IMG/VR virus record: IMGVR_UViG_3300022468_000500
Source: a virus
Taxonomy: Duplodnaviria > Heunggongvirae > Uroviricota > Caudoviricetes
Length of the DNA stretch: 64,000 bases
Direction: 5' to 3' (one strand)
Of the stretch, positions 8,770-60,535 are shown in pieces; position 1 is the stretch's first letter; every line of letters begins with the position of its first letter. A program made the translations under genes and the position numbers. Under the pieces are notes generated by a model that was not told the DNA's origin, made no database searches, and worked only from the letters and a program-made list of their open reading frames with translations.

Positions 8770-8770
8770 A

Positions 8771-9231: not shown

Positions 9232-9239
9232 AGTGTTTT

Positions 9240-9314: not shown

Positions 9315-9320
9315 ATTAAT

Positions 9321-9891: not shown

Positions 9892-9897
9892 ATTATT

Positions 9898-9972
9898 GGT
9901 TGCGTACCCCTGAATCGAACAGGTCCTGAGGCTTATGAGACCCCTGTGCTTCCATCACACCCGGCCGCGTTA
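9898..9972 (-). ncRNA. tRNA-like element (T-loop TTCGATT, CCA-like end) without foldable acceptor
   Basis: 3' half is tRNA-like; no complementary 5' acceptor found. Confidence 0.25.
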
Positions 9973-10401
9973 AATTTCTAAATAATCGAAGTCTCTATTA
10001 TACGCTGATTTGACGAGTCCGTCAAGCCAGAATTTTGTCAACTTGTCGCAAGCTACTCTAGCTTGAAATAATAGTGCATCCATCTCAAATGGTTGCGATC
10101 TAAAATACTTACGAATAGCTGTGTTATACTCAAATTGATCGAACATAGATAGATCACTACCGGTAGATAAATCGAATCTACCAGTTAAATGCTGAGTATA
10201 ATGCCTGTACTCATGAGCCATAATACTAGCAAGTGTAACTTGCCCTTCATTTTCCCTGTCTACTACGACTAGGTCCCGTGAACCAGTATTGTAGTATCCG
10301 CTGTACTTCTGACCTGTATAAGGCTCTATGATTACTCGTGGAGGGTCGATACCTTTTCTTTCTGAGAGAGGTATCCATGTCAGACGTTCTGTTGAATACA
10401 T
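9970..10401 (-). CDS. HExxH-motif protein (possible zinc metallopeptidase)
   Basis: MAHEYRHY motif. Confidence 0.4.
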   Translation of the reverse strand: MYSTERLTWIPLSERKGIDPPRVIIEPYTGQKYSGYYNTGSRDLVVVDRENEGQVTLASIMAHEYRHYTQHLTGRFDLSTGSDLSMFDQFEYNTAIRKYFRSQPFEMDALLFQARVACDKLTKFWLDGLVKSAYNRDFDYLEI

Positions 10402-14402: not shown

Positions 14403-14691
14403 TTTAATTTGCTTTCTTTTTGTTAAATTTAGTTAGTTTTAGAGATAGATGTTAATCGTAAACAGTTGCACACTTATTTAATTTTTAGCCAGATAACTCA
14501 GTGCATAAAACTGGGGTTCTTGTTTTAACTGTCAAGTCAGGTTGCTAACAAATTATTTCTAATAGTCAGCGGCTAGTATAATGAAGTAACTGTATTTAAT
14601 GAAACTGCTTTCGCTCATCTCAAACTGCAATACTATCTTCTAAAACATTAATTATACAGATTTTTGATTATGATTTCAAGTTTAAATTTAC

Positions 14692-14947
14692 TATGGTCAC
14701 TCAACGCTTGAATTTGAGGTCGCCCCGCTCTTCATGGCTGGTCCTTGCATTAGCCGGCTTTTCAAGTATTTCAGTTGTTCCACTGTAGCGACTGTGACCA
14801 TATCTAGTAACACTAATTAGGAGTAAGGCTCAACTTAAACCTCCCACACTGCACAGGTTCTTTACCCTATTGTGCCCCGTCTTTCACAGCAGTAGTTGAG
14901 CTTCTGCTGTACCTCACAGATAAGTGTTAATTAGTGTTACTAGATAT
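14692..14947 (-). ncRNA. highly structured nested-hairpin RNA element upstream of the Ro60 gene (Y-RNA candidate)
   Basis: 18-bp perfect inverted repeat atctagtaacactaatta / taattagtgttactagat enclosing about 95 nt with inner IR gctcaact/agttgagc; additional IR atggtcac/gtgaccat. Confidence 0.4.
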
Positions 14948-15023
14948 GGTAGGTGTGGAGGGATTCGAACCCTCGGTAGTCCGGTTAAAAGCCGGGTGCT
15001 TTAAGCCTCTAAGCTACACACCA
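14948..15023 (-). tRNA. trnK(uuu): tRNA-Lys(UUU)
   Basis: D stem GCTT/AAGC, anticodon loop CTTTTAA, T arm GAGGG-TTCGAAT-CCCTC, CCA encoded; T1-T72 terminal mismatch. Confidence 0.55.
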
Positions 15024-15041
15024 ATAATTTTGTTGAACGAT

Positions 15042-15242
15042 TTAGCCGTCCCAACCTTCGTCAATGTTGATAGTGATTCCGTCGCCTTCTACAATATAAC
15101 CGTCACCTTCGTCCATAGCAATGTCCTTTCGGTTTAGTTCTCCGCGCTCGCTCTTGTAGGGTCGAGTGTGAGACCCTGCATGACGCCGCATTGCATGCGC
15201 AACATAAGGATTGCGTTGTTTAATCTTTAATTGTTTGCCCAT
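15042..15242 (-). CDS. hypothetical protein
   Basis: 66-aa ORF. Confidence 0.3.
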   Translation of the reverse strand: MGKQLKIKQRNPYVAHAMRRHAGSHTRPYKSERGELNRKDIAMDEGDGYIVEGDGITINIDEGWDG

Positions 15243-37536: not shown

Positions 37537-37823
37537 AGACTAAGCAAGAATTATACAAAGAGTTTGATGTTGCTAGACGTGAACTGAACGCTGCTCAAGC
37601 GCATGAACGTGAGTACCTAAAGCAACTACACCAACACATTCAGCAATCTCTGGAAAATAAGGCCTTCGAGATAGCAAAGCTCAAAGGCCCGTACCCTTTC
37701 CTCGATATTACTTACTGTGATTTTTATTTTATGGACTCTGGAATTGATGTTTCAATGTACGACGGTAATGGTGACTACGTAGACGAATGCCTAGTAACTT
37801 GGGAAGAATTAAATGCAGACTAA
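37530..37823 (+). CDS. tandem paralog family member 1
   Basis: C-terminal DECLVTWEELN shared with members 2 and 4. Confidence 0.45.
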   Translation: MVKTKQELYKEFDVARRELNAAQAHEREYLKQLHQHIQQSLENKAFEIAKLKGPYPFLDITYCDFYFMDSGIDVSMYDGNGDYVDECLVTWEELNAD

Positions 37824-38103
37824 AGACACATACTTTCAATTCGTCAGCGAACAAACAGCACTGCGTGAAAAGTTCTACAGTGACATAAAAGACCTTCATG
37901 CTAAATACGATAGTATTGAAAAGAAACTAAAGGCTAAGGCTTTTGAGGTTTCCGAGCTCAAAGAGCAGCGTATTCTACTAAGTGATGATGACGTACGCTT
38001 CTACTTCCACAATCATGGAGTCGAAGTAGTTATGGTAGATTACAACGGTGATTACATTGACGAATGCCTAGTAACCTGGGAACAACTAAATGACCCTACA
38101 TGA
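37813..38103 (+). CDS. tandem paralog family member 2
   Basis: ...VDYNGDYIDECLVTWEQLNDPT. Confidence 0.45.
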   Translation: MQTKDTYFQFVSEQTALREKFYSDIKDLHAKYDSIEKKLKAKAFEVSELKEQRILLSDDDVRFYFHNHGVEVVMVDYNGDYIDECLVTWEQLNDPT

Positions 38104-38359
38104 GCAATTTGTAACTACAAAACAAAAGCTAGCTGAACTTCATAGGCAGTGGTGTCAAACATACGCTGCACGTGCTGACACCTCAGAGCTAGATAAAAAG
38201 ATTTACGAGCTGAACCGTGAGGTTGCATGGGTGTATTACCATGTACGTAACAATCTAGCACTTGACGCTAAGGACGAGCTGTTCATGACGCCTGATTGTG
38301 TCTCTGTTAGGTACAGTTATCAAGCTACTACGATGTATAAATGGAGTGACGTAGAATGA
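38090..38359 (+). CDS. tandem paralog family member 3
   Basis: Starts MTLHEQF from the conserved junction ctaaatgaccctacatgagcaat. Confidence 0.45.
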   Translation: MTLHEQFVTTKQKLAELHRQWCQTYAARADTSELDKKIYELNREVAWVYYHVRNNLALDAKDELFMTPDCVSVRYSYQATTMYKWSDVE

Positions 38360-38637
38360 CCCTACATGAGCAATACCTAGCGTTTGCTTCAGCTAGTAAA
38401 ATTTTAATTGATGAAGAGAACCGCAAGTATGAGGCTCTTATTAAAGAACACAACAACATTGAGGATAGATTGGCTGTTGCAGCAGTAGCTTTTCTAAATC
38501 GTACTGGTGTTCCTGTAGCTAAGGAAGACTTAGAGTTTTACTTCAGCGATAGAGGTGTTGATGTTGGAATTTTCCAGGAAGATAAATTAGTAGCCGAACA
38601 CCTAGTAACTTGGGAGAAACTAAATGACCCTACATGA
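38356..38637 (+). CDS. tandem paralog family member 4
   Basis: MTLHEQY...HLVTWEKLNDPT. Confidence 0.45.
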   Translation: MTLHEQYLAFASASKILIDEENRKYEALIKEHNNIEDRLAVAAVAFLNRTGVPVAKEDLEFYFSDRGVDVGIFQEDKLVAEHLVTWEKLNDPT

Positions 38638-38899
38638 GCAATTTCAAAGACTAAAGCTAGACGAAGGCATCCTGACTAAAGAATGGAAACGCATCTTCGA
38701 TCAAAACCCTCAACAAGCTGAAGACTTCTATCTAGAGCATATTGACCCTGTTCAATTAAAGCTACTGGCTCTAGAGAAAGAAGTGCTAAAAGCTCTAAAG
38801 TACGATGCAGGCACAGAGATTGTACTTAGTCACAGCCTAATCAGCGTATACCCTAAGGCTTTCCACAATGGCTACCACTATCACTGGACGATGGTATGA
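38624..38899 (+). CDS. tandem paralog family member 5
   Basis: MTLHEQF... Confidence 0.45.
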   Translation: MTLHEQFQRLKLDEGILTKEWKRIFDQNPQQAEDFYLEHIDPVQLKLLALEKEVLKALKYDAGTEIVLSHSLISVYPKAFHNGYHYHWTMV

Positions 38900-39219
38900 C
38901 CCTACGTGAGCAATTCAAGAAGCTTAAAAACGACTTACAGTCCAGTCTGCCTGACCTGGATATTCATACTGTAACCTTCAGCGATGCAGGAATCACTTAC
39001 AAAGATTGGTTCGGTCAACCAAAGCAGATCAGCTGGGGTCGGGTTGACACGCTAGACTTCAGAACTCTGGCAATTGAGCGAGCTAGAGTAATGTACAAAG
39101 TCACAGAAAACCCTAAGGCAATCGCTATTTCTGATAAAGAGGTCGAGCTAGAATTCTCCAATTTTAGGGTTATCCTCACTAAAGAGTTTTTGCTAGACAA
39201 AGCTGTAGTTTATCGCTAA
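38896..39219 (+). CDS. tandem paralog family member 6
   Basis: MTLREQF... Confidence 0.45.
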   Translation: MTLREQFKKLKNDLQSSLPDLDIHTVTFSDAGITYKDWFGQPKQISWGRVDTLDFRTLAIERARVMYKVTENPKAIAISDKEVELEFSNFRVILTKEFLLDKAVVYR

Positions 39220-40636: not shown

Positions 40637-40936
40637 ATGGACAAAAAACAACAATTAGAGTACATGGTAGAGCAATATAAGGCAGGAAAGCCTGTAGAGG
40701 AAATTGCACTACATCTAGAAACTACACCTCGTAGCGTTATCGCGCGCTTAAGTGCACACGGATGTTACGTCAAAAAGGTTTACAAGACGAAACAAGGCGA
40801 AGAACCTAGGTCTAAAGCCGACATGGTCGAAGCGATCGCCACATTACTAGGGGTTAATCTCGACCTCCTAGAGAGCATGGAAAAATGCAATAAAAGTGTA
40901 TTAAAACTATTAGAAAACGCACTAACTCCTAAATAA
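40637..40936 (+). CDS. A2-like HTH DNA-binding protein (paralog 1 of 4)
   Basis: Shares the TPRSVIARLS...KKVYKTKQGEE...KCNKSVLKLL architecture with 44139..44447, 46167..46568 and 50716..51063. Confidence 0.5.
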   Translation: MDKKQQLEYMVEQYKAGKPVEEIALHLETTPRSVIARLSAHGCYVKKVYKTKQGEEPRSKADMVEAIATLLGVNLDLLESMEKCNKSVLKLLENALTPK

Positions 40937-40966: not shown

Positions 40967-41247
40967 CTTTTTCATTATTAAGCGGTATTATTCAAGTCCG
41001 CCGTTCAAGCAGATAATTTTTGGCGCCCACAGCGAGAAAGGGCGCAGAACAGATTTAAAAAATAATTCTCGCGGGTATATTGACCTACCCAACTTCTGCG
41101 GACAGCTCCGCCTAACAATTTTATTGACATAATGGCTCCATAATTTGCCCTTTCGACCCTATCTGATCGAATCTCACTCATACTCATAAATTGCTCCCGC
41201 CCTGTGAAAATTTTCAAAAGCTGAGCAGAGTAATCGCACGGTAAAGG

Positions 41248-41331
41248 CAGAGTAAAAATAAACTTTACTCTGCGATTACTCTGTGATATAATAGCAGAGT
41301 AAAAAATAATTTTACTCTGCACTTTACTCTG
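41248..41331 (+). promoter_or_regulatory. operator-flanked promoter: two 25-bp palindromes bracketing a tgatataat -10
   Basis: cagagtaaaaataaactttactctg (41248-41272) and cagagtaaaaaataattttactctg (41295-41319) flank TATAAT at 41287-41292; extra half-site tttactctg at 41323-41331. Confidence 0.55.
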
Positions 41332-41343
41332 CAAGGATTTCCC

Positions 41344-41724
41344 ATGAATGAACTAACTTTCCCAAAATTCTACAATGTTGATGAACTTCTACGTATGCTC
41401 GTGGAGGGTCAGGATGTGCTAGAATTCACAGGCTACGCCAGTGAAGCCGCACTAGCCAAAGCACTAAGCAAATACTGCCCAAATAGACCAGCTAAGGCCG
41501 GCGTACTTGCCTACTTACGATCACTGAGCCCCAAAACAACAAAACCAGGCTTAGGTACGCCAATGACAAGAATAGTAAAAGGCAAAGAATATGTGTACGC
41601 TTTATTAGACGGTGATAACATAAGCTATGTACGTCCAGTAGAAAGTGACCCAGATTACGAAGATCGTATCATGCACTACAAGAAAGACCTAGGCCTTAGT
41701 GTATTCGACGAACTGCCCGCGTAA
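41344..41724 (+). CDS. hypothetical protein
   Basis: 126-aa ORF downstream of the operator-flanked promoter. Confidence 0.4.
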   Translation: MNELTFPKFYNVDELLRMLVEGQDVLEFTGYASEAALAKALSKYCPNRPAKAGVLAYLRSLSPKTTKPGLGTPMTRIVKGKEYVYALLDGDNISYVRPVESDPDYEDRIMHYKKDLGLSVFDELPA

Positions 41725-41854
41725 CGATTAAAATTACGGAGGTTTAGCACTTGAATTGGCGCAGCCACACTTTATTATAGCACGGCGGCCGCGGCTTTGT
41801 CAACTGCATAATTCAAAGAGACTCTCCAATTGGTAAAACAAACGAGCAAAACAA

Positions 41855-41925
41855 AGCCCACTAAGATAGCAAGTCTTAGTGGGCTTTGAACAGTCGGGAT
41901 GGCCATCCCTGTCAGTTTTTTACGC
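41855..41925 (+). terminator. tandem terminator hairpins
   Basis: aaagcccactaag...cttagtgggctttg, then gggatggccatccc followed by tgtcagtttttt. Confidence 0.5.
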
Positions 41926-44138
41926 AAAATAATAAGTAAATGTAGACACCAGACCACCCATTACAGATGCCAGGGAATCGATACCCTGATACTTCTTATT
42001 ACTTCACTTGGCTGAATCATCACAGCCCTGTACGTAGCCAGTACTCGGGAGCATGTTAGGGACATTGCTCAACCCACCTAGGATTTTACGTACTTGTTGT
42101 ACGGATGACTTATTATAGGCCATCTGCCCTCAGATTTCACCAGAGGTTAGTAACGTTAGCAGGTGTTAGCTTCCTGATAAAGCTGAATTTGGCCCAGCTA
42201 TAGGCTAACTAGTTTACTAGTATATAGCGTCTTTTACAGCTTAACGCCGCTGTTTGAGTTATACGTACTCCACGCATCTGCGTACTTCATGGCGAACCTT
42301 CGGCAGAGAGTGCATGTTCTGACCCTGTCTTATCTATCTAGTAAATAAGGAGTCACAGTAGACGACCACCACTGAGTTGCTATTTAGAGTCGTACAACCA
42401 CCGACTAGAGGAGCCATATTTTTTGTCTGGGCCGCGACAGAGGACAATTGTTTTTACCGGTCAGCATGCATGACCGCTAGTAGTTTAACGCCCGGTAGCT
42501 GGGCGGCCAGCTCCTACTTAATTCGGCAGCTGGACGGTAGATTGATATAAAGCACATATGACTCTAGGAGACTTGCCGCGATACACCAATAATGCTAGTA
42601 GGTAAACCATTCCATACATTTCCCGGTTGAAAGTCCGGACGACTTAGGTTAGTCGATAGCATAGATATATTCTCTTAAGAGTATGTCACTAGCTAGTGAC
42701 TCTATATCCTGACCCTAGGTGAGCAAGTCGTGAACCAGTGTGGGCCGGTTCAGCAAGACTCGCCCGAGAGCTAGAGTTTCGAGCATTTTAGCAATCTACG
42801 CATACTGGGTTATGCGCAAGTAGGGGAGAACTACTATGCAAGGCTGCTCATCATCAGAGGGTCACCTTAACTCAAAACTTATTGGTCCACGCAGTACGAG
42901 TCGTCTAGTCGAGGTTACTGATCTTGTGTACCGCTTAACCAGTATGTAAATGTTTCATGTTCCAGGTATAATAAGGTCTGCCGACCTCGTTAACATTTCA
43001 CACTACAATCATTCACTCCATAGGCCGATACAGACTCGCCAGTAGCTGTCTTTCGATCTTACTCTAGCAACGGCAGCTGCCACTGCGTGGGCCAATAAGA
43101 CCTGGCACTTAAGCCAGAACTCACTGGGGCTGTGCACCGGTTTTAGTACCTGCACAATTAAGGACGTTACCGCTGTCCACCAATCAACCGTTCGGGTAAG
43201 CCATTACTAGGTTGATTTAATTAATAAATTGTCATTATAATTGAAGAACGACAGGGCGGTTATTTTAGACTGCCCGCGCGCTACGATGAGCGACTAAAAA
43301 TAGACTTTGCCAATTGACGAAACATCGACTAAAATACCATGACCTATTTGAGACAAGCGCTCGCTACAACATGGTAGAGTCATCTATACTTTGCCGTATT
43401 TCAAGTCAGACAGCTTCATAGTAAACAGTTAACTTCATTGCGTTGGTCTACTTACGGCACAGCAGCTACGGCGGCTCAGATTAGACACTAGTTAGGTTGG
43501 TGAAGTTCGTTACGGTCTGCTGTCTGACTTTATATATCAATTATACAGTCTTTAAGTAATCAAGGCAAGTAAGAATTTTCTGAGTACGTTACGAATCATC
43601 GTATTGCCTTGACATACATTATTATACCAAATTACACAACACAGATCAAGTTCAAATTCTAAATCCTTTATGATAAACAACTGAACAAAACCTAAATTCC
43701 TCTTATATACTCTAAATTAATCTCTAATAAGATCGTTTATCGCATATCGTCCGCCTTTCTCGGTTGTTTTTGATATTCTCTTTATCACTAAAGAAACTTT
43801 ATTATACAGCGCTTTGGCTGTCTTATCAAGTACAAAATTCGAAATGCTTCGGTCAAGCCACCCACAATATCTAAAGTCTAAGTAGTTAGATATTTCCAAT
43901 CAGGCCGGAATCGCCGTGGTCGCTTGCCGAAGCTCTGAGGTGTGTCATTAATAACCTCATTGGTTTCTACTCTGACCCTATCTGGTTTGGATGGGGCACC
44001 ATCGTGGTGAAAGGACACTTGAAGGAGGTAATATGAAAATGGCAACCAAGGATAACCGCCAGGAAACTTTAGTTATTTCATAAGCTACGCGGCCAAGACG
44101 CAGCACCAGTAGTGTCAGAGTAGAAAGCGATGAAATCA

Positions 44139-44447
44139 TTAGAAGCTTAGAGAACCTGGTTGCTTATTCCTAAGAGAAGCAAGTACAAGTTCTAACGCTT
44201 CGTGGTTAGCTTTTTCTAGTGATGCAATTTTAGCACGATCGCAGCCAGAGATACCTGCAATACGATCCACCAGATCAGCTTTAGTTGTTCGTGAAGTTTT
44301 GTTAGGATTACTAGAGATAGGTTTGCCGTTGCTTAGGTACATAGCGACAGTGCCGGCCGTGATACCACAGATTCTAGCAATATCGCTGACAGCAGCACCA
44401 TCAAACCACAGCGAATTAACTCTGTCTCTCATCTGGTCTACTGTCAT
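44139..44447 (-). CDS. A2-like HTH DNA-binding protein (paralog 2 of 4)
   Basis: ICGITAGTVAMYLS...KADLVDRIAGISG...LEKANHEALELVL parallels the other paralogs. Confidence 0.45.
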   Translation of the reverse strand: MTVDQMRDRVNSLWFDGAAVSDIARICGITAGTVAMYLSNGKPISSNPNKTSRTTKADLVDRIAGISGCDRAKIASLEKANHEALELVLASLRNKQPGSLSF

Positions 44448-44448
44448 A

Positions 44449-44679
44449 CTAGCTATTCCTCGACTTTATATATCTATTATACGCTGATTTACCAAGAGAG
44501 TCAAGTAAACTTTTATCAATCTCAATCAGTGTAAACTCTTTTTGTCTCGCTAAGCCTATATTATACAGATTTGTAGTTCGCTTTGCAAGATCAGAATTTG
44601 AAACGTAATCAGTGTAGTATTCCCCACTGAATGGGCAAAGCGCTATAGTTTTTACTTGTCTGTTATTCATATTGCCCAA
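44449..44679 (-). CDS. hypothetical protein
   Basis: 76-aa ORF. Confidence 0.3.
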   Translation of the reverse strand: MGNMNNRQVKTIALCPFSGEYYTDYVSNSDLAKRTTNLYNIGLARQKEFTLIEIDKSLLDSLGKSAYNRYIKSRNS

Positions 44680-44839
44680 ATCACTGTAATCTAGCCTATA
44701 TTATACAATAAATGACAAAATCAGTCAAATTTATGATTTTAAACGTGTTTTTGGCCTAAAAATTAACAATTTTGCATGTTTTTCGCTGTTTTTGTGAATT
44801 TAACCTCATAATTATGCGCTTATTTCGTTCAAAATACGA

Positions 44840-45110
44840 AGTTTTTGCACTTGAACCTAGCTGATCTAGATGCCAAGGATTAGCACTAGCTTTCATTTTC
44901 ACATGAGTTTATCCACTAACCCGCACGTAATGCCAAGATTTTGCACTTGCCAAGGTTTTGCACTGGCGCAACCCACCTAACCGGTGAGTTGCAACTAAGA
45001 CGACTTGGTCGCGACTTGAGCGTATACGTCGCGAATTGAACGTATGAGGCACGAATGCAGTATTTTAGTCGTAACGCATACGTATTAGTCACGAATTAAA
45101 CGTATGAGTC
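44840..45110. repeat. direct-repeat cluster (TTTTGCACT / TGCCAAG repeats, DnaA-box-like tttatccac, four about 20-bp iteron-like repeats GTCGCGAMTTGARCGTAT)
   Basis: ttttgcact at 44843, 44938, 44956; tgccaag at 44871, 44931, 44949; tttatccac at 44908; tandem gtcgcgacttgagcgtat / gtcgcgaattgaacgtat / gtcgtaacgcatacgtat / gtcacgaattaaacgtat at 45009-45109. Confidence 0.5.
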
Positions 45111-45198
45111 GTGACCGATCAGTCACCGCACCAGATATGACCCACCCATTATAGCACGAAAAACAATACCCCTACGAAAAATAAGTTATAAATATTCC

Positions 45199-45227
45199 TT
45201 GCACAAGCCTGGAGCTTGAGGTATAAT
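45199..45227 (+). promoter_or_regulatory. cassette promoter TTGCAC-N17-TATAAT (copy 1 of a repeated unit)
   Basis: Preceded by conserved ccctacgaaaaataag UP-like block. Confidence 0.55.
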
Positions 45228-45233
45228 TTTGGC

Positions 45234-45300
45234 GCACCCAAATGCGAATGATTCTCATTCGCTGCCTGGCCGAATAAGAATCATTCCACCAGGTACACGT
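45234..45300 (+). ncRNA. candidate small RNA (promoter-hairpin-terminator cassette copy 1)
   Basis: Begins a few nt after the -10; contains hairpin gcgaatgattctcattcgc; ends at terminator 45301-45333. Confidence 0.3.
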
Positions 45301-45333
45301 AAAAAAGCCCGGACAATCCGGGCTTTTGTCTTT
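45301..45333. terminator. bidirectional rho-independent terminator
   Basis: aaaaaagcccggacaatccgggcttttgtcttt. Confidence 0.65.
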
Positions 45334-45679
45334 AAAAATCATATTCGTCAAAATACGGGGCATAGCTTTTACCCGTATGTCGATCAATAAAATTCGGGTT
45401 AATACCACGCCATTTATTAGCCCAGTATTTAGCGCTGCGTTCGTTCAGAAAAACCTGAACTGGCCTAGCGTCATATTCATAACCGGTAACGCCACGGTCG
45501 GCCATCGAGAATTCCGGTCGATAAGATTTTGTCTTAAAGATGGAATAAAAGGTATCATTCCAATCCTTCGGAACCCTTGCGCGAATAATAACCTTTTTAG
45601 GGTTACCACAATGATCCAAAACCCAAACGGATTTACCGGCTTTAATGTCGGCTTTGCGTGCGAGTGAATGACGGGACAT
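45332..45679 (-). CDS. hypothetical protein
   Basis: 115-aa ORF; first gene of the high-GC module. Confidence 0.4.
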   Translation of the reverse strand: MSRHSLARKADIKAGKSVWVLDHCGNPKKVIIRARVPKDWNDTFYSIFKTKSYRPEFSMADRGVTGYEYDARPVQVFLNERSAKYWANKWRGINPNFIDRHTGKSYAPYFDEYDF

Positions 45680-46166: not shown

Positions 46167-46568
46167 TTATTCCGGGGCATGCCCGTTATCGGCGGCCATC
46201 TGGTCGGCGGTGGCGTCATCGTGCGCCGTGCTGACGGATTCAGACAGGGCCTTGAAAATGGCGGCCAGTGCGGTTTTGTTGCATTTCGTCAGCGAATCGG
46301 TGTCGTTTTCGTTCAGGCGGAGAATCGCGCCGATTGCGTCCGCGTGGTCATCCTTTTTAACCGAAGGTTCCCCGTTTTTGGTGGTGTAAGCCTTCTTTTT
46401 GTAAACCCCTTCGCGCGACAGCTTCGCCACGATGGAGCGGGCGGTCTTGCCCAGTTCAGCGGCCAGCTTTTCCACGGTTTCCGCCGTAGGGTTTGCCACG
46501 TAGGCTTGCACCATGCTGGCGGTTTGTTCAGCGGTATAGTTCACGGCCTTTTCAGTCTTAGCGGTCAT
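46167..46568 (-). CDS. A2-like HTH DNA-binding protein (paralog 3 of 4)
   Basis: VEKLAAELGKTARSIVAKLSREGVYKKKAYTTKNGE...TKCNKTALAAIFKAL. Confidence 0.55.
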   Translation of the reverse strand: MTAKTEKAVNYTAEQTASMVQAYVANPTAETVEKLAAELGKTARSIVAKLSREGVYKKKAYTTKNGEPSVKKDDHADAIGAILRLNENDTDSLTKCNKTALAAIFKALSESVSTAHDDATADQMAADNGHAPE

Positions 46569-46744
46569 TTTGAAGCATCCTTAAAAATGGATTGTAACAC
46601 AAAATCTTAGGTTTTATTTTTTTATCGCCCTTTGCTGCGATATGGGTTTATTATAACACGGTTTTTTAGCGCTTTGCAAGTATTTTCGGAATTTATTTTT
46701 TCTTTCCTTTTCTCGCGTTGTGCCAGTTTCCCGGCATGTGTAGA

Positions 46745-46775
46745 TTATACATGAATCCCGCCGCCAGGTATGACC
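46745..46775 (-). promoter_or_regulatory. minus-strand promoter with extended -10 (plus-strand catgtgtagattatacatg)
   Basis: Reverse complement reads ...catgtataatctacacatg; same box recurs at 49975. Confidence 0.4.
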
Positions 46776-46993
46776 CTACGAAAAATAGGTTTTTATTGAC
46801 AATGCACCAGGTTTAGCGTATGCATGCGGCCAGGCCTACTGCTATCATTTTAATAGCAAAATCGGCGCCTGCCCTATTATAGCACACAAACCTGGCCCTG
46901 TGTCAATACCCTACAAAAATAAAGTTATTGACAAGTCGCCAGGCTTGATGTACCAAAAATTTGTAAATGATTCTCATTCCACCAGGTACACGT

Positions 46994-47023
46994 AAAAAAG
47001 CCTCGATTAATCGAGGCTTTTTA
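46994..47023. terminator. bidirectional rho-independent terminator
   Basis: aaaaaagcctcgattaatcgaggcttttta. Confidence 0.65.
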
Positions 47024-47374
47024 GTAACTGGGGGCCATTATACCATCATATTCTACGCCAGTTTCTAAGGATAGTAGCTTTGCCAGTGATTTAAATTCTT
47101 TACCATGCCCATAATCCCAAAATCCGTTTTCGGCTTGCCATGCGTGAATTAACTCATGCAAAATAACTTTAATTGGATCATGCGCTTTAATCGAATAGTC
47201 GATTACATGATGTTGCCCGAATTTTTCAGTGTATGCAAAGGTATAGTAACCTAACGCAGTATGCGCAACTTTATCGACTTGCTTTCTTATTATCCGCTTA
47301 TGTTCTTTATAAACGATGCGCCGTTTTAGGTCCAAAACCTTAAGCGCCTTTTTAACCAGTTTACTGTTTTCCAT
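47021..47374 (-). CDS. SprT-like zinc metalloprotease-motif protein
   Basis: HELIHAWQAENGFWDYGHGKEF; paralog of 51182..51583. Confidence 0.5.
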   Translation of the reverse strand: MENSKLVKKALKVLDLKRRIVYKEHKRIIRKQVDKVAHTALGYYTFAYTEKFGQHHVIDYSIKAHDPIKVILHELIHAWQAENGFWDYGHGKEFKSLAKLLSLETGVEYDGIMAPSY

Positions 47375-47412
47375 AATAGATAATGCCCCGGATTATCTCC
47401 GGGGCATCCTCA

Positions 47413-49143
47413 TTACATGAAAATAATCTGTCGCTGGCCGTTAACGTAGGTTACCACGTTTGCAAGCTGCCAGCTACTGGGGCCAATGTTATAACCCATT
47501 TCCAGCGAACCCGATACGCCCGCAGTGTAGCATGCGCCGGTAATGCTGGGGGTGTGTGTATGGCCCGTATTCATGGGGATTCCCAATGTACGGAACTGGG
47601 CAGGGCTGCCCCGGCTGCCGTTGATACCCGTATGTCCATGACAGCCCATTTCAACGCCCGCCATCATAACGGATTCGTCAGTTTCATGGAATACGATTTG
47701 TTGCGAGTATCGGCCACCCCCGATTTCATAATATGCGAATTTCAGCATATTAAAATCAGAATTGCCAGTTTCTGCAATATGCGTATAAAGTGCAGTAGTG
47801 CAGCGCAAGTAAGTCAGCGCGTTTACTGGGTCCGTTTTGAAGTCGGCATTTTTCAGCCACGTATTAATCGCCAGATCATGATTCGATTCGATAACGTGGA
47901 CATTTACCCCAGTTTCTGCAATCGCGTCAATAATGCGCGCCACGGTTTTAACGTCGCCCTCTACCGTATTATTAGCCACGGTTTGCGCGAACATAAAAGC
48001 GCAATCCTTAACGTTATGATGGTTCCGGCTGGAAAAATCCATTACATCATGCAAAAGCACGTTTTCAGGCTGAAACCGGGCAATTTCAGCGCGGATTTTA
48101 TCGAGATTTTCAGCAGTCATTTTTTCCGCGTGAATATCCCCGAATTGCAGCGCTTTTACATCGCCATCTGTCTGGTTAAATGCCCCTTGCGCATTAAAAA
48201 ACATATCCTCATCAAAGAAACCGGTAGATTCTGGCATCAGCTCCAATTGACGCACCACGGCCGGACCAGTACCGCGAGTATCGACAACCAAAGCGCCAAT
48301 GTTATGTTCAGTAGCGGCCACCGCGCCAGCTTTGCGCGTGATGTAATTACGCTTTGTAATGCTGCCCGTCGAATACAGCACCTTACCGCGTGCATGCTTG
48401 AGCGAAGCCGTGCATTTGAGGGAGATTTTCACAGCCGGGATGATAATGTCAATGCCTGCGGGCGTGATACCCTCGAAACCCGAAAGCGGATTTTTTGCCG
48501 TGGGCAGTACGTTTGCCTGTGCAACAAAATCAATTTTGCCCGCGATACGGATTTGTTCATTGACAATGTATTGCACAATTTCAGGGGCATAATAAATGCC
48601 ATCCTCGAATTGTTCCACGGATTGGAACCCGTTTTTGTTGTACGTGGTTTTTGCCACCAGCAACCGCGCGCCAGTATGTTCACAGTAAGAACGCAGCGCA
48701 CCCAGCATTACCGCATCCACATCGGTGTTATTTTGCGCCGTAGTTACCACGTACAACCCAGCAGGCAATTCGGTCACATGCGCGCCGGCATCATCTACGC
48801 CAGCAGAAACCGGCTTTGCTGCGTCCTTTTCTTGCTTTTCGATGGCTTTGCGCGCCTTATCCTGTGCCACCAGATGACGCCGCAGGGTTTCGCTTTCCAG
48901 AATCGCATTAACTGCCTCGATTGGCTGATTTTCGTAATCGGCCAATTGCATCATTTCCTTGACAATTTCGGCCTTTTTATCGGCCTTCTTTGCGCGGAAA
49001 TAGCCCAGAGTTTGCGCAGTAATGATAACTTCTTTTTCGTTCATGGTTAGCCTTAAAATACCGGATACCGCCGGATTATCGCGGATTGTAGCGTTTTGCT
49101 GCAATGAGGAAATTATAACACGGTTTTTTGAGGAAACCGCCAA
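47413..49143 (-). CDS. A1: A1-like large metallophosphoesterase-domain protein (T5 pre-early A1 analogue)
   Basis: 576 aa; C-terminal half has ordered calcineurin-like motifs GDIHA, HDVMDFS, ESNHD, CHGHTG, GHTHTPS; size and context resemble T5 A1. Confidence 0.65.
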   Translation of the reverse strand: MAVSSKNRVIISSLQQNATIRDNPAVSGILRLTMNEKEVIITAQTLGYFRAKKADKKAEIVKEMMQLADYENQPIEAVNAILESETLRRHLVAQDKARKAIEKQEKDAAKPVSAGVDDAGAHVTELPAGLYVVTTAQNNTDVDAVMLGALRSYCEHTGARLLVAKTTYNKNGFQSVEQFEDGIYYAPEIVQYIVNEQIRIAGKIDFVAQANVLPTAKNPLSGFEGITPAGIDIIIPAVKISLKCTASLKHARGKVLYSTGSITKRNYITRKAGAVAATEHNIGALVVDTRGTGPAVVRQLELMPESTGFFDEDMFFNAQGAFNQTDGDVKALQFGDIHAEKMTAENLDKIRAEIARFQPENVLLHDVMDFSSRNHHNVKDCAFMFAQTVANNTVEGDVKTVARIIDAIAETGVNVHVIESNHDLAINTWLKNADFKTDPVNALTYLRCTTALYTHIAETGNSDFNMLKFAYYEIGGGRYSQQIVFHETDESVMMAGVEMGCHGHTGINGSRGSPAQFRTLGIPMNTGHTHTPSITGACYTAGVSGSLEMGYNIGPSSWQLANVVTYVNGQRQIIFM

Positions 49144-49159
49144 ACCTGAAAATTATTTT

Positions 49160-49636
49160 TTAATGCCCCTGTTTCGATGGTACATAAACCCCACGGATTC
49201 CGAAGCGGTCGCAAACTGCTTTCAGGTATTGGATATTATCTTCATAAAAGACAAAATCCGCAGCCTTAAAAGGTTTCAGGTTGAAAAACCGCGCCAGTCC
49301 GTTGATTTTCAGGGTTTTCCCCGATTGATTATCCCCCGGCTTACGTGAGATAAAATGATCTGGCATGCCCAGCACGTTATTCACAAATTCCCAATCGGGG
49401 GCATGCATTTCACGCGCAGTAGCGATAACCGTAAAGCAATTTTCATCGCGCAGGTCCGCCCGGTATTGTTCCGCAAGGGGCAAAAGGGAATCATCCATTG
49501 CCAGATGCTGATTTTCGCGCCAATGCGCTAAGTCGATGCGTTCGCCCGCATCATCAATAATGGTCCGATAACGATGGCTGGAATCCACAATTGTCCCATC
49601 CATATCGTAAATTGCAACACGATTAATTTTAGCCAT
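49160..49636 (-). CDS. dmp: HAD-family 5'-deoxynucleotidase-like protein (dmp-like)
   Basis: IYDMDGTIVDS HAD motif I; start placed at MAKINRVAIYDMDG. Confidence 0.65.
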   Translation of the reverse strand: MAKINRVAIYDMDGTIVDSSHRYRTIIDDAGERIDLAHWRENQHLAMDDSLLPLAEQYRADLRDENCFTVIATAREMHAPDWEFVNNVLGMPDHFISRKPGDNQSGKTLKINGLARFFNLKPFKAADFVFYEDNIQYLKAVCDRFGIRGVYVPSKQGH

Positions 49637-49643
49637 GATTGAA

Positions 49644-49907
49644 TTATACCACGTAGTTAAAGAAGCCAATAACGTTTGCCGTGAAATAAACCCCTTGCAG
49701 CGCAATAAAATTACGCTGGCGATACATCACAGCAGAGAAAAGGAGACAAGCGCTAGACAGAAGAAAAAACGGATACCCGTATTTTCCCAATGCAAGGGCC
49801 ACCAAAAACGCGCCAATAATACCGGCTGCGGTTCCAATGGTTTCAATGAATTTAAGTTTAGTCATAATAAGCTGCAATAGCCCCATTATATTCTGCCACG
49901 GTTGCAA
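49644..49907 (-). CDS. small membrane protein
   Basis: Two or three hydrophobic helices. Confidence 0.35.
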   Translation of the reverse strand: MQPWQNIMGLLQLIMTKLKFIETIGTAAGIIGAFLVALALGKYGYPFFLLSSACLLFSAVMYRQRNFIALQGVYFTANVIGFFNYVV

Positions 49908-50034
49908 AAGTCAAGCCCTTTTCCTTCGCCCATTTTGCGAACTCCTGGTGCTCTTTCGTGCTGTATCGTTTTGTCATGTGTAGATTATAGCGAGAAAATC
50001 CAGCGTATTTTTAACCCTACAAAAATAAGCTATT

Positions 50035-50063
50035 ATTAAATTCCTTGCACGCGCCAGGTTTGT
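50035..50063 (+). promoter_or_regulatory. cassette promoter TTGCAC-N17-TATAAT (copy 3)
   Basis: taaccctacaaaaataagc UP block, extended -10 tgatataat; transcript region has hairpin gctatcaaaatgatagc. Confidence 0.5.
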
Positions 50064-50177
50064 GTGATATAATTTTGGCGCACCCATGCTATCAAAATGA
50101 TAGCTTGAAAAGATATGACCCACCCATTGTACCATAAAAGACGCCTAAAATAATAACCCTACAAATAATAAGTCTCT

Positions 50178-50206
50178 TGCACGCGCCAGGAATACGTGCT
50201 ACAATT
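50178..50206 (+). promoter_or_regulatory. cassette promoter TTGCAC-N17-TACAAT (copy 4)
   Basis: taaccctacaaataataag UP block; followed by gcgaatgataatcattcgc hairpin and gcaaagccctttcgggctttgc hairpin (50248-50295). Confidence 0.5.
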
Positions 50207-50294
50207 ATGACGTGGTAATGTGGGCCCAAAATCGGCGCACCCAAATGCGAATGATAATCATTCGCATTTGATGCAAAGCCCTTTCGGGCTTTGC

Positions 50295-50715: not shown

Positions 50716-51063
50716 TTAGTCGTTCAAGGGCTTGCTATTCGCCAGGGCAAGCATTACCGCTTTCAGCGCGGTCTTGTTCGCCTTAGTCAACGAATCTGTA
50801 TCAGCTTCGGACAGCTTGAGGATTCGCCCGATGGTTTCGGCGTGAGTGTCTTTCTTAACCGGCTTTTCGCCAGTCTTCGAGACATATTCTTTCTTTTTGT
50901 AAATGCCCATACGGGACAGCTTCGCCACAATCGAGCGGGCCGACTTGCCCACCAGTTCACCCAGTTGTTCTACGGTGTAGCTACCGGATGTGTAACCATC
51001 ACGCAGGATGGTTTCTTGTTCAGCGGTGTAGTTCGCTACCTTTTCAGCTTTTGCGGTTGCCAT
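50716..51063 (-). CDS. A2-like HTH DNA-binding protein (paralog 4 of 4)
   Basis: LGELVGKSARSIVAKLSRMGIYKKKEYVSKTGE...TKANKTALKAVMLAL. Confidence 0.55.
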   Translation of the reverse strand: MATAKAEKVANYTAEQETILRDGYTSGSYTVEQLGELVGKSARSIVAKLSRMGIYKKKEYVSKTGEKPVKKDTHAETIGRILKLSEADTDSLTKANKTALKAVMLALANSKPLND

Positions 51064-58597: not shown

Positions 58598-60535
58598 ATG
58601 AAAACTAAGGCGTTTGCCAAAGATAAGATTCTACACCTTGATAGCGTATTCCTAAAAGAAGATTCGGCCGAAGGCCCAGTTTTTATTAGCGGATACGCTT
58701 CTACTGTAGATATCGATAGAGCTAATGACGTTGTTCCTGCTCATGTGTGGGCTAAGGGCATCGAAAATTACCTAAAGAATCCAGTTATTCTAGCGCAACA
58801 TGACCATTCAAAGCCGATCGGTAGAATGGAAGAGCATAGAATTGACGAAAAGGGCCTGTGGATTAAGGCCAGAATCTCCCCTGCAGCAGAACATTATTTT
58901 GGACTAATTAAAGACGGTGTAGTTACCGCCTTCAGTATTGGTTTCAGAGTTCTAGACGCTGCTTACGATCACATTACAGATGTATTTGTGGTAAAAGAGC
59001 TAGAGCTTACTGAAATCAGTGCAGTAGCTGTCCCTTGTAACCCTAACACGCTGTTTAGTTTATCAAAAGCATTTGATAGCGAACAAGCGTATAACGATTT
59101 TAAAAAGCAATTCACACCCGAAAGCTCGTCAGCTAAAGGGCTCGACTCCTCAACGGAAGTGGATAGCACAAACCCTAAAAAGGAATTTAATATGAATGAA
59201 GACGAAATCAAGGCTATGGTAGCTGCTGCTGCTAAACAAGCTGCTGCCGATGCACTGGCAACTAAGGCTAAGGCTGATGCCGAAGCTGCTGCAGCTGCTA
59301 AGGCTAAGGCCGATGCTGATGCTGAAATTGAAGCTCGCGTAAAGGCAGCTGTAGCTGCTTCTGTAAGCTCAGGTCAATCCGGTGCAGAAAAGCTACTAGC
59401 TGAAGTTGAAAAGCGTATCAACGACGCTACCGAAGCTAGCAAAAATGTTCTAGCTGGTCTAGAAGCTGAACTAGCTCAAAAGGCTAGCGAACTAAAGGCT
59501 ATCCAAGAATCAAAGATGAAGTTTGGTCAAGATGGCGCAGGTTCTACTTATACAGAACGTGAAACAGCTTTCCTACTAAGTAAGATGAGCGGTAAGAGCA
59601 TTGAAGCAACCAAGTATGGCCGCTCAGTGATCGAAAAGGCTGGTCCTCACCAAGCAAGTCAAACATGGGAAACAGAAGTATCCCTAAACATGGAAAACGA
59701 AGTACGTCGTCGTCTAGTAGTAGCTCCTACGCTACGTCAGATTCAGATGGCTACTAACGTAATGACCCTACCTATCAACCCAGAAGCTGGTTATGGTACA
59801 TGGGTAACGAACGCACAGTTCGGTACCTCTGCTTCAGCTGGTGCGGCTCAAACCCATCAACTAAAAGAACTAACTATCAACGCGTACAAACTAGCTACTA
59901 GTGAATACCTAGCTTACGAAGAAGAAGAAGATAGCCTATTAGTGCTAACTCCTATCATCCGTGACGCTATGATTCGCCGTGTTGCTAAGTCCGTTGATAA
60001 GGCATTCCTAGTAGGCGTAGGTTCAGGTGCTGATCCAGTTAAGGGTCTAGCTATGTTCGACACAGTATCAGCTGTTACGTCACCAGTTGCTAATAAGGCA
60101 ACCGTTGCTAACATGATTGCTCTACGTAAGGACCTAGGTGCATGGGGTCTATCTCCATCAGAACTAGTGTATGTAGTTTCTACAGACGTTTACTACGATC
60201 TATTAGAAGACACGCTATTCCAGACAGTAGATAAGATCGGCGATAAGGCTACTCTACTAACTGGTCAAATCGGTGCTATTGGTAACACTCCAGTTATCGT
60301 AAGTGCTGAACTACCAGCTAAGGCTTCTGGTTCTACTGGTGCTGCTACTAACGTAGGCGCTCTAGTTTATCACAATGGTAACTTCCTAGTAGGTAACCAA
60401 CGTGGTATGCGTTTTGATACACAAGACCTAGTTGAAACACAACGTAAGGTAATGGTAGCTAGTCTACGTACTGGTCTACAACAAGTTACTACTAACCTAG
60501 GCGGTGCAGTATCCGCTTTCCGTTGGGTAGTGTAA
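58598..60535 (+). CDS. fused prohead protease - scaffold(delta) - major capsid protein
   Basis: 645 aa without internal stop: N-terminal about 190 aa HK97-type prohead protease-like; central A/K/E-rich coiled segment; C-terminal about 330 aa capsid-like; strong terminator follows. Confidence 0.65.
   Translation: MKTKAFAKDKILHLDSVFLKEDSAEGPVFISGYASTVDIDRANDVVPAHVWAKGIENYLKNPVILAQHDHSKPIGRMEEHRIDEKGLWIKARISPAAEHYFGLIKDGVVTAFSIGFRVLDAAYDHITDVFVVKELELTEISAVAVPCNPNTLFSLSKAFDSEQAYNDFKKQFTPESSSAKGLDSSTEVDSTNPKKEFNMNEDEIKAMVAAAAKQAAADALATKAKADAEAAAAAKAKADADAEIEARVKAAVAASVSSGQSGAEKLLAEVEKRINDATEASKNVLAGLEAELAQKASELKAIQESKMKFGQDGAGSTYTERETAFLLSKMSGKSIEATKYGRSVIEKAGPHQASQTWETEVSLNMENEVRRRLVVAPTLRQIQMATNVMTLPINPEAGYGTWVTNAQFGTSASAGAAQTHQLKELTINAYKLATSEYLAYEEEEDSLLVLTPIIRDAMIRRVAKSVDKAFLVGVGSGADPVKGLAMFDTVSAVTSPVANKATVANMIALRKDLGAWGLSPSELVYVVSTDVYYDLLEDTLFQTVDKIGDKATLLTGQIGAIGNTPVIVSAELPAKASGSTGAATNVGALVYHNGNFLVGNQRGMRFDTQDLVETQRKVMVASLRTGLQQVTTNLGGAVSAFRWVV

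Follow-up and report, generated by a model that had tools for sequence, protein, structure and literature searches.

What function could a long stretch without genes serve in the genome of a tailed phage? In the window analysed here (the whole 64,000-nt stretch of DNA), positions 41725 to 45300 form a 3.5-kb gene-poor spacer at a convergent junction, where the A1/A2/dmp module meets the early genes. The pausing and resumption of DNA injection by T5-type phages has been an open problem for decades, and the noncoding border is its prime suspect, treated purely as DNA. The original prediction took the core of the spacer (41960–43540) to be featureless, perhaps foreign, and its right end to resemble a replication origin or a T5-like boundary.

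The spacer carries two small conserved genes. The single A2-like coding sequence first predicted (44139–44447, minus strand) does encode a 102-aa helix-turn-helix protein, with homologues at 50–67% identity in related phages. However, its kinship to A2 is distant and transitive: it matches a 99-aa protein (40637–40936; E = 8e-6), which in turn matches the A2 PHROG, but not the 133-aa A2 directly. The gene that had been overlooked, encoding 73 or 74 aa (44449–44670, minus strand), was called in metagenome contig L003 and is kept in all relatives, as a 74-aa gene in L017–L022 and L024. After this correction, the gene-free stretches of the spacer are 41725–44138 and 44671–45331. The second ends in a hairpin terminator (45300–45331, minus strand) that closes the dmp-A1-SprT-A2-115aa operon and is kept in L017 and L022. 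ARAGORN detected no tRNA or tmRNA in the spacer.

Our data agree with the original prediction that the core holds no ORF of 60 aa or more, the longest in any frame of 41960–43540 being at most 57 aa. When TAG, TGA or TAA was read through, open frames in the core reached at most 148 codons, so that coding under a recoded stop codon was rejected, and no positionally conserved ORF was found in the core among relatives. The core also lacks repeats, as predicted, with no direct-repeat family and just five short inverted repeats. The claim of a near-even composition, unlike that of the flanks, is correct in direction (A.266, C.233, G.223, T.278 in the core;.299/.210/.200/.291 for A/C/G/T in the whole window), but the contrast is modest, at a GC content of ~46% vs 41% in the flanks. 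At the dinucleotide level, the core is poor in AA and rich in TA and AG.

This slightly deviant composition is what one might expect of foreign, junk or decayed coding DNA. The comparison with relatives argues otherwise. Seven related phage lineages, sampled independently, share the core in colinear and conserved form (comparisons covered only six to seven lineages), and we consequently regard it as native. Three metagenome contigs (L002–L004) are 100% identical to the window, and L011, L012, L014 and L017–L024 keep a gene-free gap of 2.1–2.4 kb that separates the A2-like gene from the convergent one. Compared with L017, the region of the predicted core RNA is ~95% identical over aligned columns, against 85% for A1, 89% for A2, 65.5% for the A2-like gene, 73% for the 74-aa gene and 53% for the 126-aa gene; overall, flanking-gene identities between lineages span 51–89%. 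Likewise, the RNA regions of L023 and L011 are 90% identical, and the A2-like protein of L023 is just 50% identical to that of the window. The core is thus the most conserved sequence of the region. Its indels are unrelated to frame and no protein remnant is detectable in it. One insertion of ~90 nt (42088–42177, minus strand) occurs in the window lineage only, being missing from the alignments of L011, L012, L014, L017 and L021.

Wider searches gave little. The spacer and 25 kb around it had no match in 50,697 phage records (nucleotide searches, near and distant modes), and the flanking proteins had no relatives in IMG/VR. A search of IMG/VR and JGI metagenomes with A1 yielded distant relatives only (L005–L010); neither blastn nor nhmmer found any sequence shared by their gaps and the core. 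Conserved 22- and 32-mers had no exact match in IMG/VR and GTDB genomes, nor did two hammerhead-based patterns, except in L005's own contig.

The core had also been described as free of promoter boxes. In context, three conserved tandem sigma-70 promoters on the minus strand are directed into it. These are P1 (TTGATA-17-TATAAT, 43801–43829; conserved in L011 and L023), P2 (TTGATC-17-TATAAT with an extended −10 TG, 43621–43649; conserved in L011 and L023) and, closest to the predicted RNA start, P3 (TTGCCT-17-TATAAT, 43540–43568; conserved in L011, L021 and L022). Between the A2-like gene and P1 lies a conserved untranslated stretch (43830–44138, minus strand; 85% identical to L017) with 32-nt inverted-repeat arms at 43949–43980 and 44110–44141. 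At the other end of the core we found an intrinsic terminator (41842–41888, minus strand), composed of a 15-bp G+C-rich hairpin (41888–41852) and the U-tract UUUUGCUCGUUUGUUUU, which is present on the minus strand only. The U-tract is invariant, the stem shows four compensatory pairs, and terminator and promoters were recovered again in L023. Together, these signals delimit a predicted noncoding RNA of ~1.69 kb (41842–43533, minus strand), running from ~7 nt downstream of the −10 box of P3 up to the terminator U-tract; its length in relatives would be 1.36–1.7 kb. Just past the terminator there is a perfect consensus promoter (TTGACA-18-TATAAT with TG; 41774–41803, minus strand), conserved in all relatives. 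In the window it points antisense into the 126-aa gene, and in L021 an 83-aa ORF lies downstream of its equivalent.

The predicted RNA appears to be structured. The RNAalifold consensus fold comprises 291 pairs, with 94.2% of cells paired; 62 of these pairs changed on both sides, vs 32.8 ± 3.7 in shuffles (0/500) and 5–12 in slid controls, although the structure was predicted on the same alignment that was later scored, which inflates the covariation counts. Column shuffling gave z-scores of −3.9, −5.6 and −8.7 for three blocks, and the two most conserved blocks (alignment columns 27–340 and 701–960) had no stability beyond shuffled columns (z = −0.3 and −1.5). The 3′ domain (41888–42089, minus strand) is predicted to adopt a multi-branched fold of 55 pairs, 11 of them changed on both sides vs 5.2 ± 1.6 in shuffles, and its helix 5 (columns 84–97 with 158–172 of alignment A4) has several invariant G·U pairs. 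Indels take out entire hairpins, which are gained or lost between lineages. A covariance model of the 3′ domain (R1) found matches in the close clade only, and none outside it. Over the whole window, only tRNAs reached an Rfam gathering threshold; no relevant family was reported for 41600–45400 with E ≤ 10, and the models for GOLLD, ROOL, group I/II introns, rRNA, RNase P and tmRNA did not match the spacer.

Which strand would be the functional one? Consensus folding energies are nearly equal (−278 kcal/mol for the plus strand vs −295 kcal/mol for the minus strand). Such near-symmetry would suit an alternative in which the spacer, together with its core, works as one DNA-level cis element, a counterpart of T5 Repeat Region 3 serving as injection stop, terminal-repeat boundary or packaging-related tract, and in which inverted repeats matter as DNA hairpins or protein-binding sites rather than as RNA. 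However, the ratios of G·U to A·C pairs in strand-neutral folds (8:4 and 13:2), along with the invariant G·U pairs, speak for an RNA of minus-strand sense, pointing to selection on one transcribed strand. The bracketing of the core by conserved promoters and a strand-specific U-tract terminator also speaks against a DNA element, and neither long-range nested helices nor a hammerhead core would serve an obvious purpose in double-stranded DNA.

The hammerhead-like element sits in the most conserved block of the core. It is a three-way junction of type I topology (42706–42862, minus strand), the lone descriptor hit in 64 kb on both strands, where the null expectation is 0.05 per 64 kb. Stem I (42862–42858 with 42710–42706) leads into CUGAUGA (C3–A9, 42857–42851) and an extra U (42850), followed by stem II (GAGCA/UGCUC, 42849–42845 with 42785–42781), G12A13A14 (42780–42778), stem III (ACUCUAG/CUAGGGU, 42777–42771 with 42718–42712) and C17 (H17 = C, 42711), with cleavage predicted at 42711|42710. 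The core nucleotides CUGAUGA and GAA are all present and invariant in the relatives examined. All three helices are found, with the pairs G10.1–C11.1 and A15.1–U16.1, an unpaired H17 and a GUC cleavage triplet. U·G and C–G pairs swap between lineages in stem III, and stem I has three contiguous pairs in the window and L017, four to five in other lineages. In L005, a relative at a greater distance, the syntenic gap contains a canonical hammerhead, without the extra U that the window clade carries between A9 and G10.1. The minimum-energy fold of L005 is the hammerhead fold; in that of the window, a rival helix, UGACCCU:AGGGUCA, is preferred and masks the cleavage site. Hammerhead_3 (RF00008), the sole Rfam family reported for the 211-nt stretch, scored 12.9 bits for the window sequence and 19.4 bits for that of L005, both far short of the gathering score of 48.5. 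Taken together, the models make a built-in self-cutting hammerhead motif in the core RNA probable. The element shares its core nucleotides, three-helix junction, type I topology and phage intergenic setting with the hammerheads found between genes of phages and prophages (Perreault et al. 2011, PMC3088659; Rfam clan CL00010). It differs from known hammerheads in its very long insertions (28–58 nt in the stem II loop, 51–95 nt inside stem III), in the extra U of the window clade, in scoring under every Rfam threshold, and in lying mid-way inside a much larger conserved RNA instead of beside a gene.

Other assignments were rejected. A type III register, taken from the Rfam alignment, needs an upstream stem III partner, GAGU, that is not conserved in L011, L021 and L022. 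We also dismissed the idea that the over-represented UAGGGUC heptamer marks sites of trans-cleavage in phage messages: many of the sites are on the strand that is not transcribed, and the bases following the heptamer mismatch stem I. A default-filter match of hammerhead model R2 in L006 (19989–20093, 18.4 bits) is devoid of CUGAUGA and was regarded as spurious. Overall, the core can hardly be called featureless: it combines promoters, a terminator, structure-preserving substitutions and a hammerhead-like junction, and is the best-conserved element of its neighbourhood.

Hammerheads flanking prophage genes have been proposed to trim messages, and Perreault et al. (2011, PMC3088659) describe phage hammerheads with a presumed role in the processing of long transcripts. 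By analogy, the 74aa/A2-like operon could end in a long 3′ untranslated or processing region that makes up the gap, or the gap could hold several small RNAs, with the hammerhead trimming messages. Promoters farther upstream (44728, 44588 and 44504) could indeed read through into the gap, and the gap of L005 is split into two promoter–terminator units. Yet three dedicated promoters stand immediately before the core, conservation and covariation span the full 1.4–1.7 kb, well beyond the ribozyme, and no gene lies on the same strand between the cleavage site and the terminator. We consider this reading distinctly unlikely, and favour a dedicated RNA gene.

At the right end of the spacer, the predicted direct repeats are real, and both the iterons and the tandem array exceed chance. 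Four 17-nt iterons (AGTGCAAAAYCTTGGCA on the minus strand) occupy 44833–44967, a block invariant in six sequences; searched as CCAAGRTTTTGCACT, there are four at 44837–44964 and one more at 41737. The tandem ~20-bp repeats are confirmed as an array of ~20-nt units (TCRCGACTMATACGTTTAAT) at 44995–45110, with six copies here and eight in L017; copy number varies, and in L022 a different array takes its place. Contigs L018, L019 and L021 start inside this array, which explains the breaks by the array itself, and the contig ends near 44.9–45.2 kb are thus no evidence of a genome terminus. The polarity of the TAGGGTC heptamer was similarly discarded as a boundary marker, as relatives show mixed orientation beside the spacer. 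Next to the array is a promoter/operator module (45133–45290) with the palindrome AATGCGAATGATTCTCATTCGC at 45241–45262, a half-palindrome at 45271–45290, a minus-strand extended −10 (TGCTATAAT) and a plus-strand TTGCAC-17-TATAAT. Its part 45133–45262 is duplicated at 50034–50265, ahead of the dmp-A1-A2 operon. That the same module heads this operon suggests a joint switching of the pre-early genes with the small genes and the downstream RNA.

Is the right end an origin? Iterons, an AT-rich stretch (44450–44900, GC ~32%) and a DnaA-like 9-mer do come together at 44700–45110. The 9-mer, TTATCCACT (44909–44917), is present as predicted and invariant, but it is single and one base from the DnaA consensus; the spacer contains no consensus TTWTNCACA box, and the whole window has 4 vs 7.8 expected. 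Compared with an iteron/DnaA-type origin, then, iterons and AT-rich stretch are there and the DnaA-box cluster is lacking. In addition, T5 origins lie in the middle of the genome (bioRxiv 10.1101/866236), and the duplication before the A1 operon is how a regulatory module would behave. The origin-like label is therefore not upheld, and a foreign, junk or decayed core next to a replication origin seems to us very improbable.

The resemblance to T5-type borders proved more instructive. The noncoding border region is the presumed site of the T5 injection-stop signal (bioRxiv 10.1101/866236; PMC10644984), and the long noncoding regions of Salmonella phage Spc35 and Vibrio phage X1 occupy the same kind of convergent junction as the spacer. 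The palindrome AATGCGAATGATTCTCATT is also clustered in the noncoding border region of both phages, and the right-end palindrome recurs in L005 and L022. AATGMGAATNATTMTCATT occurs in the window at 45241 and 50244–50268 (0.02 matches expected), at five sites in Spc35 (8570–9067) and in five copies in X1. Relative to the A1 module, Spc35 and the window agree in order, with GTGCAAA-type iterons coming after the AATGMGAATNATTMTCATT palindromes, and the window iterons resemble, without being identical to, the TGTGCAAATCCGAC ×8 of Spc35; the comparison of these repeat families covered Spc35 and X1. Like Repeat Region 3 (iss) of T5, BF23 and Spc35 (Davison 2020, bioRxiv 10.1101/866236; PMC10644984), the spacer is a long noncoding tract at the junction of A1/A2/dmp and early genes and is better conserved than the neighbouring ORFs. 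The T5 injection-stop region has ~8 DnaA/DnaA* boxes, in pairs 3 bp apart, placed within inverted repeats on either side of a 52-bp spacer (bioRxiv 10.1101/866236; PMC10644984), whereas here there is the single 9-mer, no paired consensus boxes and no IRD′-spacer-IRC′ inverted repeat. The genes of the module run in the opposite order (dmp-A1-A2 here vs A2-A1-dmp in T5), and the spacer additionally contains the two small genes and a structured core of 1.7 kb, free of repeats and equipped with promoters and a terminator of its own; such additions have not been described for T5. Position and motifs thus support the predicted T5-like boundary or injection-stop tract at the right end alone, and the sequence comparison supports 44833–45290 as the likely counterpart of the T5-type first-step-transfer border repeat region.

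For the spacer as a whole to be a DNA element, position and the shared palindromic and iteron motifs would fit, in agreement with T5-type phages and X1. Since the untranslated repeat regions of T5 are also highly conserved, more so than the adjacent ORFs (bioRxiv 10.1101/866236), conservation alone cannot separate an RNA from a DNA-level element. The T5-type motifs, however, are confined to the right end, and the core, with no direct repeats and almost no palindromes, does not look like Repeat Region 3. Along with the strand-specific signals described above, this makes an exclusively DNA-level role unlikely.

We therefore think that the core is probably a gene for a large structured noncoding RNA with a predicted internal hammerhead, adjoining a T5-type regulatory repeat region. 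Host RNA polymerase would start at P1–P3 on the minus strand, transcribe ~1.7 kb devoid of a reading frame and stop at the intrinsic terminator (41888–41842). The transcript would fold into many conserved helices, and in its central invariant block the type I hammerhead-like junction would cut at 42711|42710, giving halves of ~823 and ~866 nt that may be expected to act as RNAs. The right end would supply the promoter/operator module and arrays of protein-binding repeats. As to function, our best guess is an abundant early RNA that aids host take-over or counters host defence.

GOLLD and ROOL are large, ornate, phage-associated noncoding RNAs. The core RNA is similarly large, multi-domain, structured and noncoding, in a phage with many tRNA genes, and in both cases function cannot be read from the sequence. 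It would be ~2–3 times longer, though, shows no sequence or structure match to them (both Rfam families were in the library searched), adjoins the pre-early A1/A2 module rather than lying among tRNA genes, and has a hammerhead-like core. More speculatively, this uncultured T5-like clade may possess a giant self-cutting RNA (1.4–1.7 kb) of an unknown class, transcribed at the border of the DNA injected first, whose halves act directly as RNA in take-over, anti-defence or the control of second-step transfer.

Irrespective of the exact role, these results show that a phage gap annotated as gene-poor and featureless can be the most constrained sequence of a genome, and that a hammerhead-like core with very long helix insertions escapes the standard family models used in ribozyme searches. 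If our reading is true, the RNA would rank among the largest non-ribosomal structured RNAs known in bacterial viruses, joining the short list of very large structured bacterial and phage RNAs with mysterious roles. It would also mark the first time that an RNA is proposed to play a part at the T5 injection-stop border, where a conserved transcription unit for a predicted self-cleaving large RNA, adjoining the border repeats, would offer a concrete, testable component.

The window, DNA of an uncultured T5-like phage, has 21 tRNA genes and encodes, at 47413-49143 on the minus strand, an A1 protein with 38-39% identity to A1 of T5-like phages, accompanied by an A2 homologue (46167-46568), a SprT-like protein (47021-47374) and a HAD-type dmp-like protein (49160-49705). 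The genes for the small and large terminase subunits, the portal and a protease-capsid fusion lie to the right of this A1 module, from 55065 onward; the apparent fusion is a single 645-aa ORF (58598-60535) with matches to head-maturation protease families as well as to major head protein families. By terminase, the closest cultured relatives are Vibrio Demerecviridae (48% identity), and no nucleotide similarity to the gene-poor spacer (41725-45300) or to the surrounding 25 kb was found in any phage record searched. Genes are on the minus strand to ~27 kb and on the plus strand at 27.9-41.7 kb, and those of the A1 module (~54 kb to 44.1 kb) are again on the minus strand, so that the spacer is the convergent junction between the A1 module and the early block.

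Along transcription, the pre-early order in the window (46167-49705) is dmp, A1, SprT-like, A2, which is inverted with respect to the A2, A1, dmp order of the T5-type phages Spc35 (124-3828) and Vibrio phage X1. The proteins of four neighbouring small paralogous genes at 37813-39219 apparently all begin with MTLHEQ, as read from the DNA by hand, and the shared start sequence of these genes repeats about every 268 nt. Just upstream of the 126-aa gene that converges on the spacer, a unit of 11-12 nt (TTTACTCTGC / GCAGAGTAAA) is present about six times, in both orientations, and forms nested hairpins (41225-41335); the same motif is found at the end of one relative's contig, L023.

Over the whole spacer, the window is matched at 100% identity by three contigs of JGI metagenome 3300022305, and the core (41842-43533) is therefore not an artefact of the window. 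Homologues of the flanking proteins, with 50-79% identity, were found in Logan and ENA assemblies. In all of the contigs concerned (L011-L014 and L017-L024), a 74-aa gene is followed by the A2-like gene and then by a gap of 2.1-2.4 kb free of genes, with the convergent gene beyond the gap wherever the contig reaches that far, except in L021. The original prediction had recognized the A2-like gene (44139-44447) as the only CDS of the spacer, overlooking the 73/74-aa gene at 44449-44670. The relatives' gap aligns to the window over its full length. Between the window and L017, the aligned columns of the RNA core are ~95% identical, a value derived from 76.1% overall identity and 340 gap columns and referring only to columns present in both phages; the corresponding identities are 89% for A2, 85% for A1, 73% for the 74-aa gene, 65.5% for the A2-like gene, 53% for the 126-aa gene and 51% for the 115-aa gene. 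Differences between lineages in the core are clustered in blocks, and entire hairpins are present in some lineages and absent from others. As had been noticed from the sequence, the core has no sizeable ORF (the longest is 57 aa), no direct repeats were found in it, and its bases are more balanced than those of the rest of the window. No ORF common to the lineages was found in the core, and recoding of any stop codon opens no long frame there.

The core is best read as a gene for a large structured RNA, running from promoters to terminator. Directly upstream, on the minus strand, stand three tandem sigma-70-type promoters, P1 (43829-43801), P2 (43649-43621, with an extended -10) and P3 (43568-43540), all kept in relatives. 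The core ends with a 15-bp G+C-rich hairpin (41888-41852) that is followed by a U-rich tract on the minus strand only; the U-tract is invariant, and the stem shows four compensatory pairs. The predicted RNA would extend from ~43533 to ~41845, roughly 1.69 kb, and would be shorter in relatives lacking some of the hairpins. Just beyond the terminator lies another sigma-70 promoter (41774-41803, minus strand), which matches the consensus perfectly, has an extended -10 and points into the 126-aa gene in the antisense direction; L021 lacks that gene and has an 83-aa ORF after the promoter.

RNAalifold, applied to seven sequences, gave -295 kcal/mol in the minus sense vs -278 in the plus sense, with 291 predicted pairs and 94.2% of cells able to pair. 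Changes on both sides were seen for 62 pairs, vs 32.8 ± 3.7 after shuffling (0/500) and 5-12 when partners were slid by 1-3 columns, the fold having been predicted from the same alignment that was later scored, with six to seven lineages only. For the 3' domain alone, 11 of 55 pairs were changed on both sides, vs 5.2 ± 1.6. Against column-shuffled controls, three variable blocks gave z = -3.9, -5.6 and -8.7, and two nearly invariant blocks only -0.3 and -1.5; the single-sequence fold of the 5' half gave z = -3.0. When folds were made strand-neutral by disallowing G·U, the mismatches read in the minus sense were G·U rather than A·C by 8:4 and 13:2, and several G·U pairs of one 13-pair helix are invariant. 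The main rival explanation is that the core acts as DNA, as the T5 repeat regions do. We consider this less likely because the core is free of repeats, its terminator is predicted to function on one strand only, G·U pairs exceed A·C mismatches in the minus sense, and it contains a ribozyme core.

This ribozyme core lies in an invariant central block of the RNA gene. Along the minus strand, the block reads GACCCU, CUGAUGA (42857-51), an extra U, stem II (GAGCA / UGCUC, with a loop of 28-58 nt), GAA (42780-78), stem III (ACUCUAG / CUAGGGU, with a 51-nt conserved hairpin between the strands), C 42711, the predicted cleavage site (42711/42710) and AGGAU, the 3' strand of stem I. Every conserved hammerhead core residue is present in type I order, with G10.1-C11.1, A15.1-U16.1 and a GUC cleavage triplet, and this core is invariant among the relatives examined. 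Between lineages, U·G and C-G pairs replace each other in stem III, and most lineages have an additional A-U pair in stem I. A descriptor search of both strands of the 64 kb returned the central block as its sole hit (random sequences, 0.05 hits per 64 kb), and the RNAalifold consensus, made before the motif was spotted, already had a three-way junction at this place (helices 18, 19 and 21). In Rfam, only Hammerhead_3 was reported, with 12.9 bits for the window and 19.4 bits for the more distant contig L005; both scores are below the gathering score of 48.5, so that the curated threshold does not assign the motif to the family. The minimum-energy fold of the window favours a competing helix, UGACCCU:AGGGUCA, in which the cleavage site is buried.

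L005, whose A1 is 60% identical to that of the window, has a syntenic gap with its own promoters and terminators and no detectable sequence in common with the core. This gap contains a canonical type I hammerhead, without the extra U and with stems I, II and III of 5, 5 and 8 pairs, and here the minimum-energy fold is exactly the hammerhead. When a hammerhead model of the window clade was run with no filters, the L005 site ranked first (11.3 bits, E ~0.016). In the best-supported reading, the core RNA of the window probably self-cleaves. Hammerheads are known from phage intergenic regions (PMC3088659); we found no description in the literature of one centred within a conserved 1.7-kb RNA. After its hammerhead-containing unit, L005 has another promoter-to-terminator unit (14362-15045, ~620 nt, no ORF), which may be a second noncoding RNA.

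There are 28 copies of the heptamer TAGGGTC in the window (5.0 ± 2.2 expected; e.g., at 4338, 23868, 42711, 43974 and 61295) and 16 in L005 (1.6 expected); L006, L007 and Spc35 have none. Below ~36 kb of the window every copy is on the plus strand, and above 41 kb nearly every copy is on the minus strand, independently of gene direction. Some are part of a longer GATCAGCTAGGGTC motif or of TTGACCCTA -35 boxes, four derive from the starts of paralogous genes, and one is the hammerhead cleavage site.

The repeats at the right end of the spacer (44833-45290) are real, and the region is strongly conserved among relatives. Reading down the minus strand from 45331, there are an operon terminator, two copies of a palindrome (the one at 45241-45262 is AATGCGAATGATTCTCATTCGC), a promoter with an extended -10, a 20-nt tandem array (six copies in the window, eight in L017), four AGTGCAAAAYCTTGGCA iterons with an invariant TTATCCACT among them, and the AT-rich promoter region of the 74-aa gene. 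The DnaA-box-like 9-mer that had been pointed out is present, but it is single and one base away from consensus. Because 45133-45262 is repeated at 50034-50265, immediately upstream of the dmp-A1 operon, we take it to be a promoter/operator module. The two copies (~130 bp) stand 5 kb apart as direct repeats on either side of the dmp-A1-SprT-A2-115aa operon, their identity varying between segments from 70 to 94%; the upstream copy of L017 is a tandem triplicate, inside which the 105.7-kb scaffold terminates. The contigs L018, L019 and L021 start within the 20-nt array, so assembly breaks at this array are uninformative on genome ends. At ~320-500 of L022 (columns 320-480 of alignment A3), the array is replaced by GAATGATTCTCATTTACAAA units, which are multiple copies of the T5-type palindrome half-site. 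Four paralogous A2-type helix-turn-helix DNA-binding proteins are encoded within 10.5 kb (40637-40936, 44139-44447, 46167-46568 and 50716-51063) and are candidates for reading the palindromes (e.g., AATGCGAATGATTCTCATT) and iterons.

Junctions of the same type as the spacer are found in Spc35 (noncoding gap 8528-10240, with the left terminal repeat ending at 9573) and in Vibrio phage X1 (84751-86198). The T5 counterpart of this gap is "Repeat Region 3", the candidate injection-stop signal (bioRxiv 10.1101/866236), and the equivalent noncoding stretch of BF23, also long, is at 8.6-10.3 kb (PMC10644984). The palindrome AATGMGAATNATTMTCATT has five sites in the Spc35 border region, five copies in the X1 gap and three in L005, and forms an array in L022. 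In Spc35 the palindromes are followed by eight TGTGCAAATCCGAC iterons, and since the window has palindromes and iterons in the same order, its right end is probably the counterpart of the T5-type border repeat region. The original likening of the spacer to such a border is supported, by position and motifs, for the right end only. The paired DnaA boxes stressed by Davison for the T5 border are absent from it. In Spc35, 10194-10222 (minus strand), just downstream of the last early gene, is a perfect consensus promoter (TTGACA-17-TATAAT with TG); it points into the border, so the T5-type border may also be transcribed.

The best-supported arrangement is thus an RNA gene located directly beyond a conserved regulatory/repeat tract that is probably homologous to the T5 first-step/second-step border region. 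We infer the production of the RNA, its cleavage and its role. Expression would be very early and high, judging from the site beside the A1/A2 module, the shared operator module and the three strong promoters of host type, and a function in host take-over, in anti-defence or in the DNA-transfer switch would be plausible.
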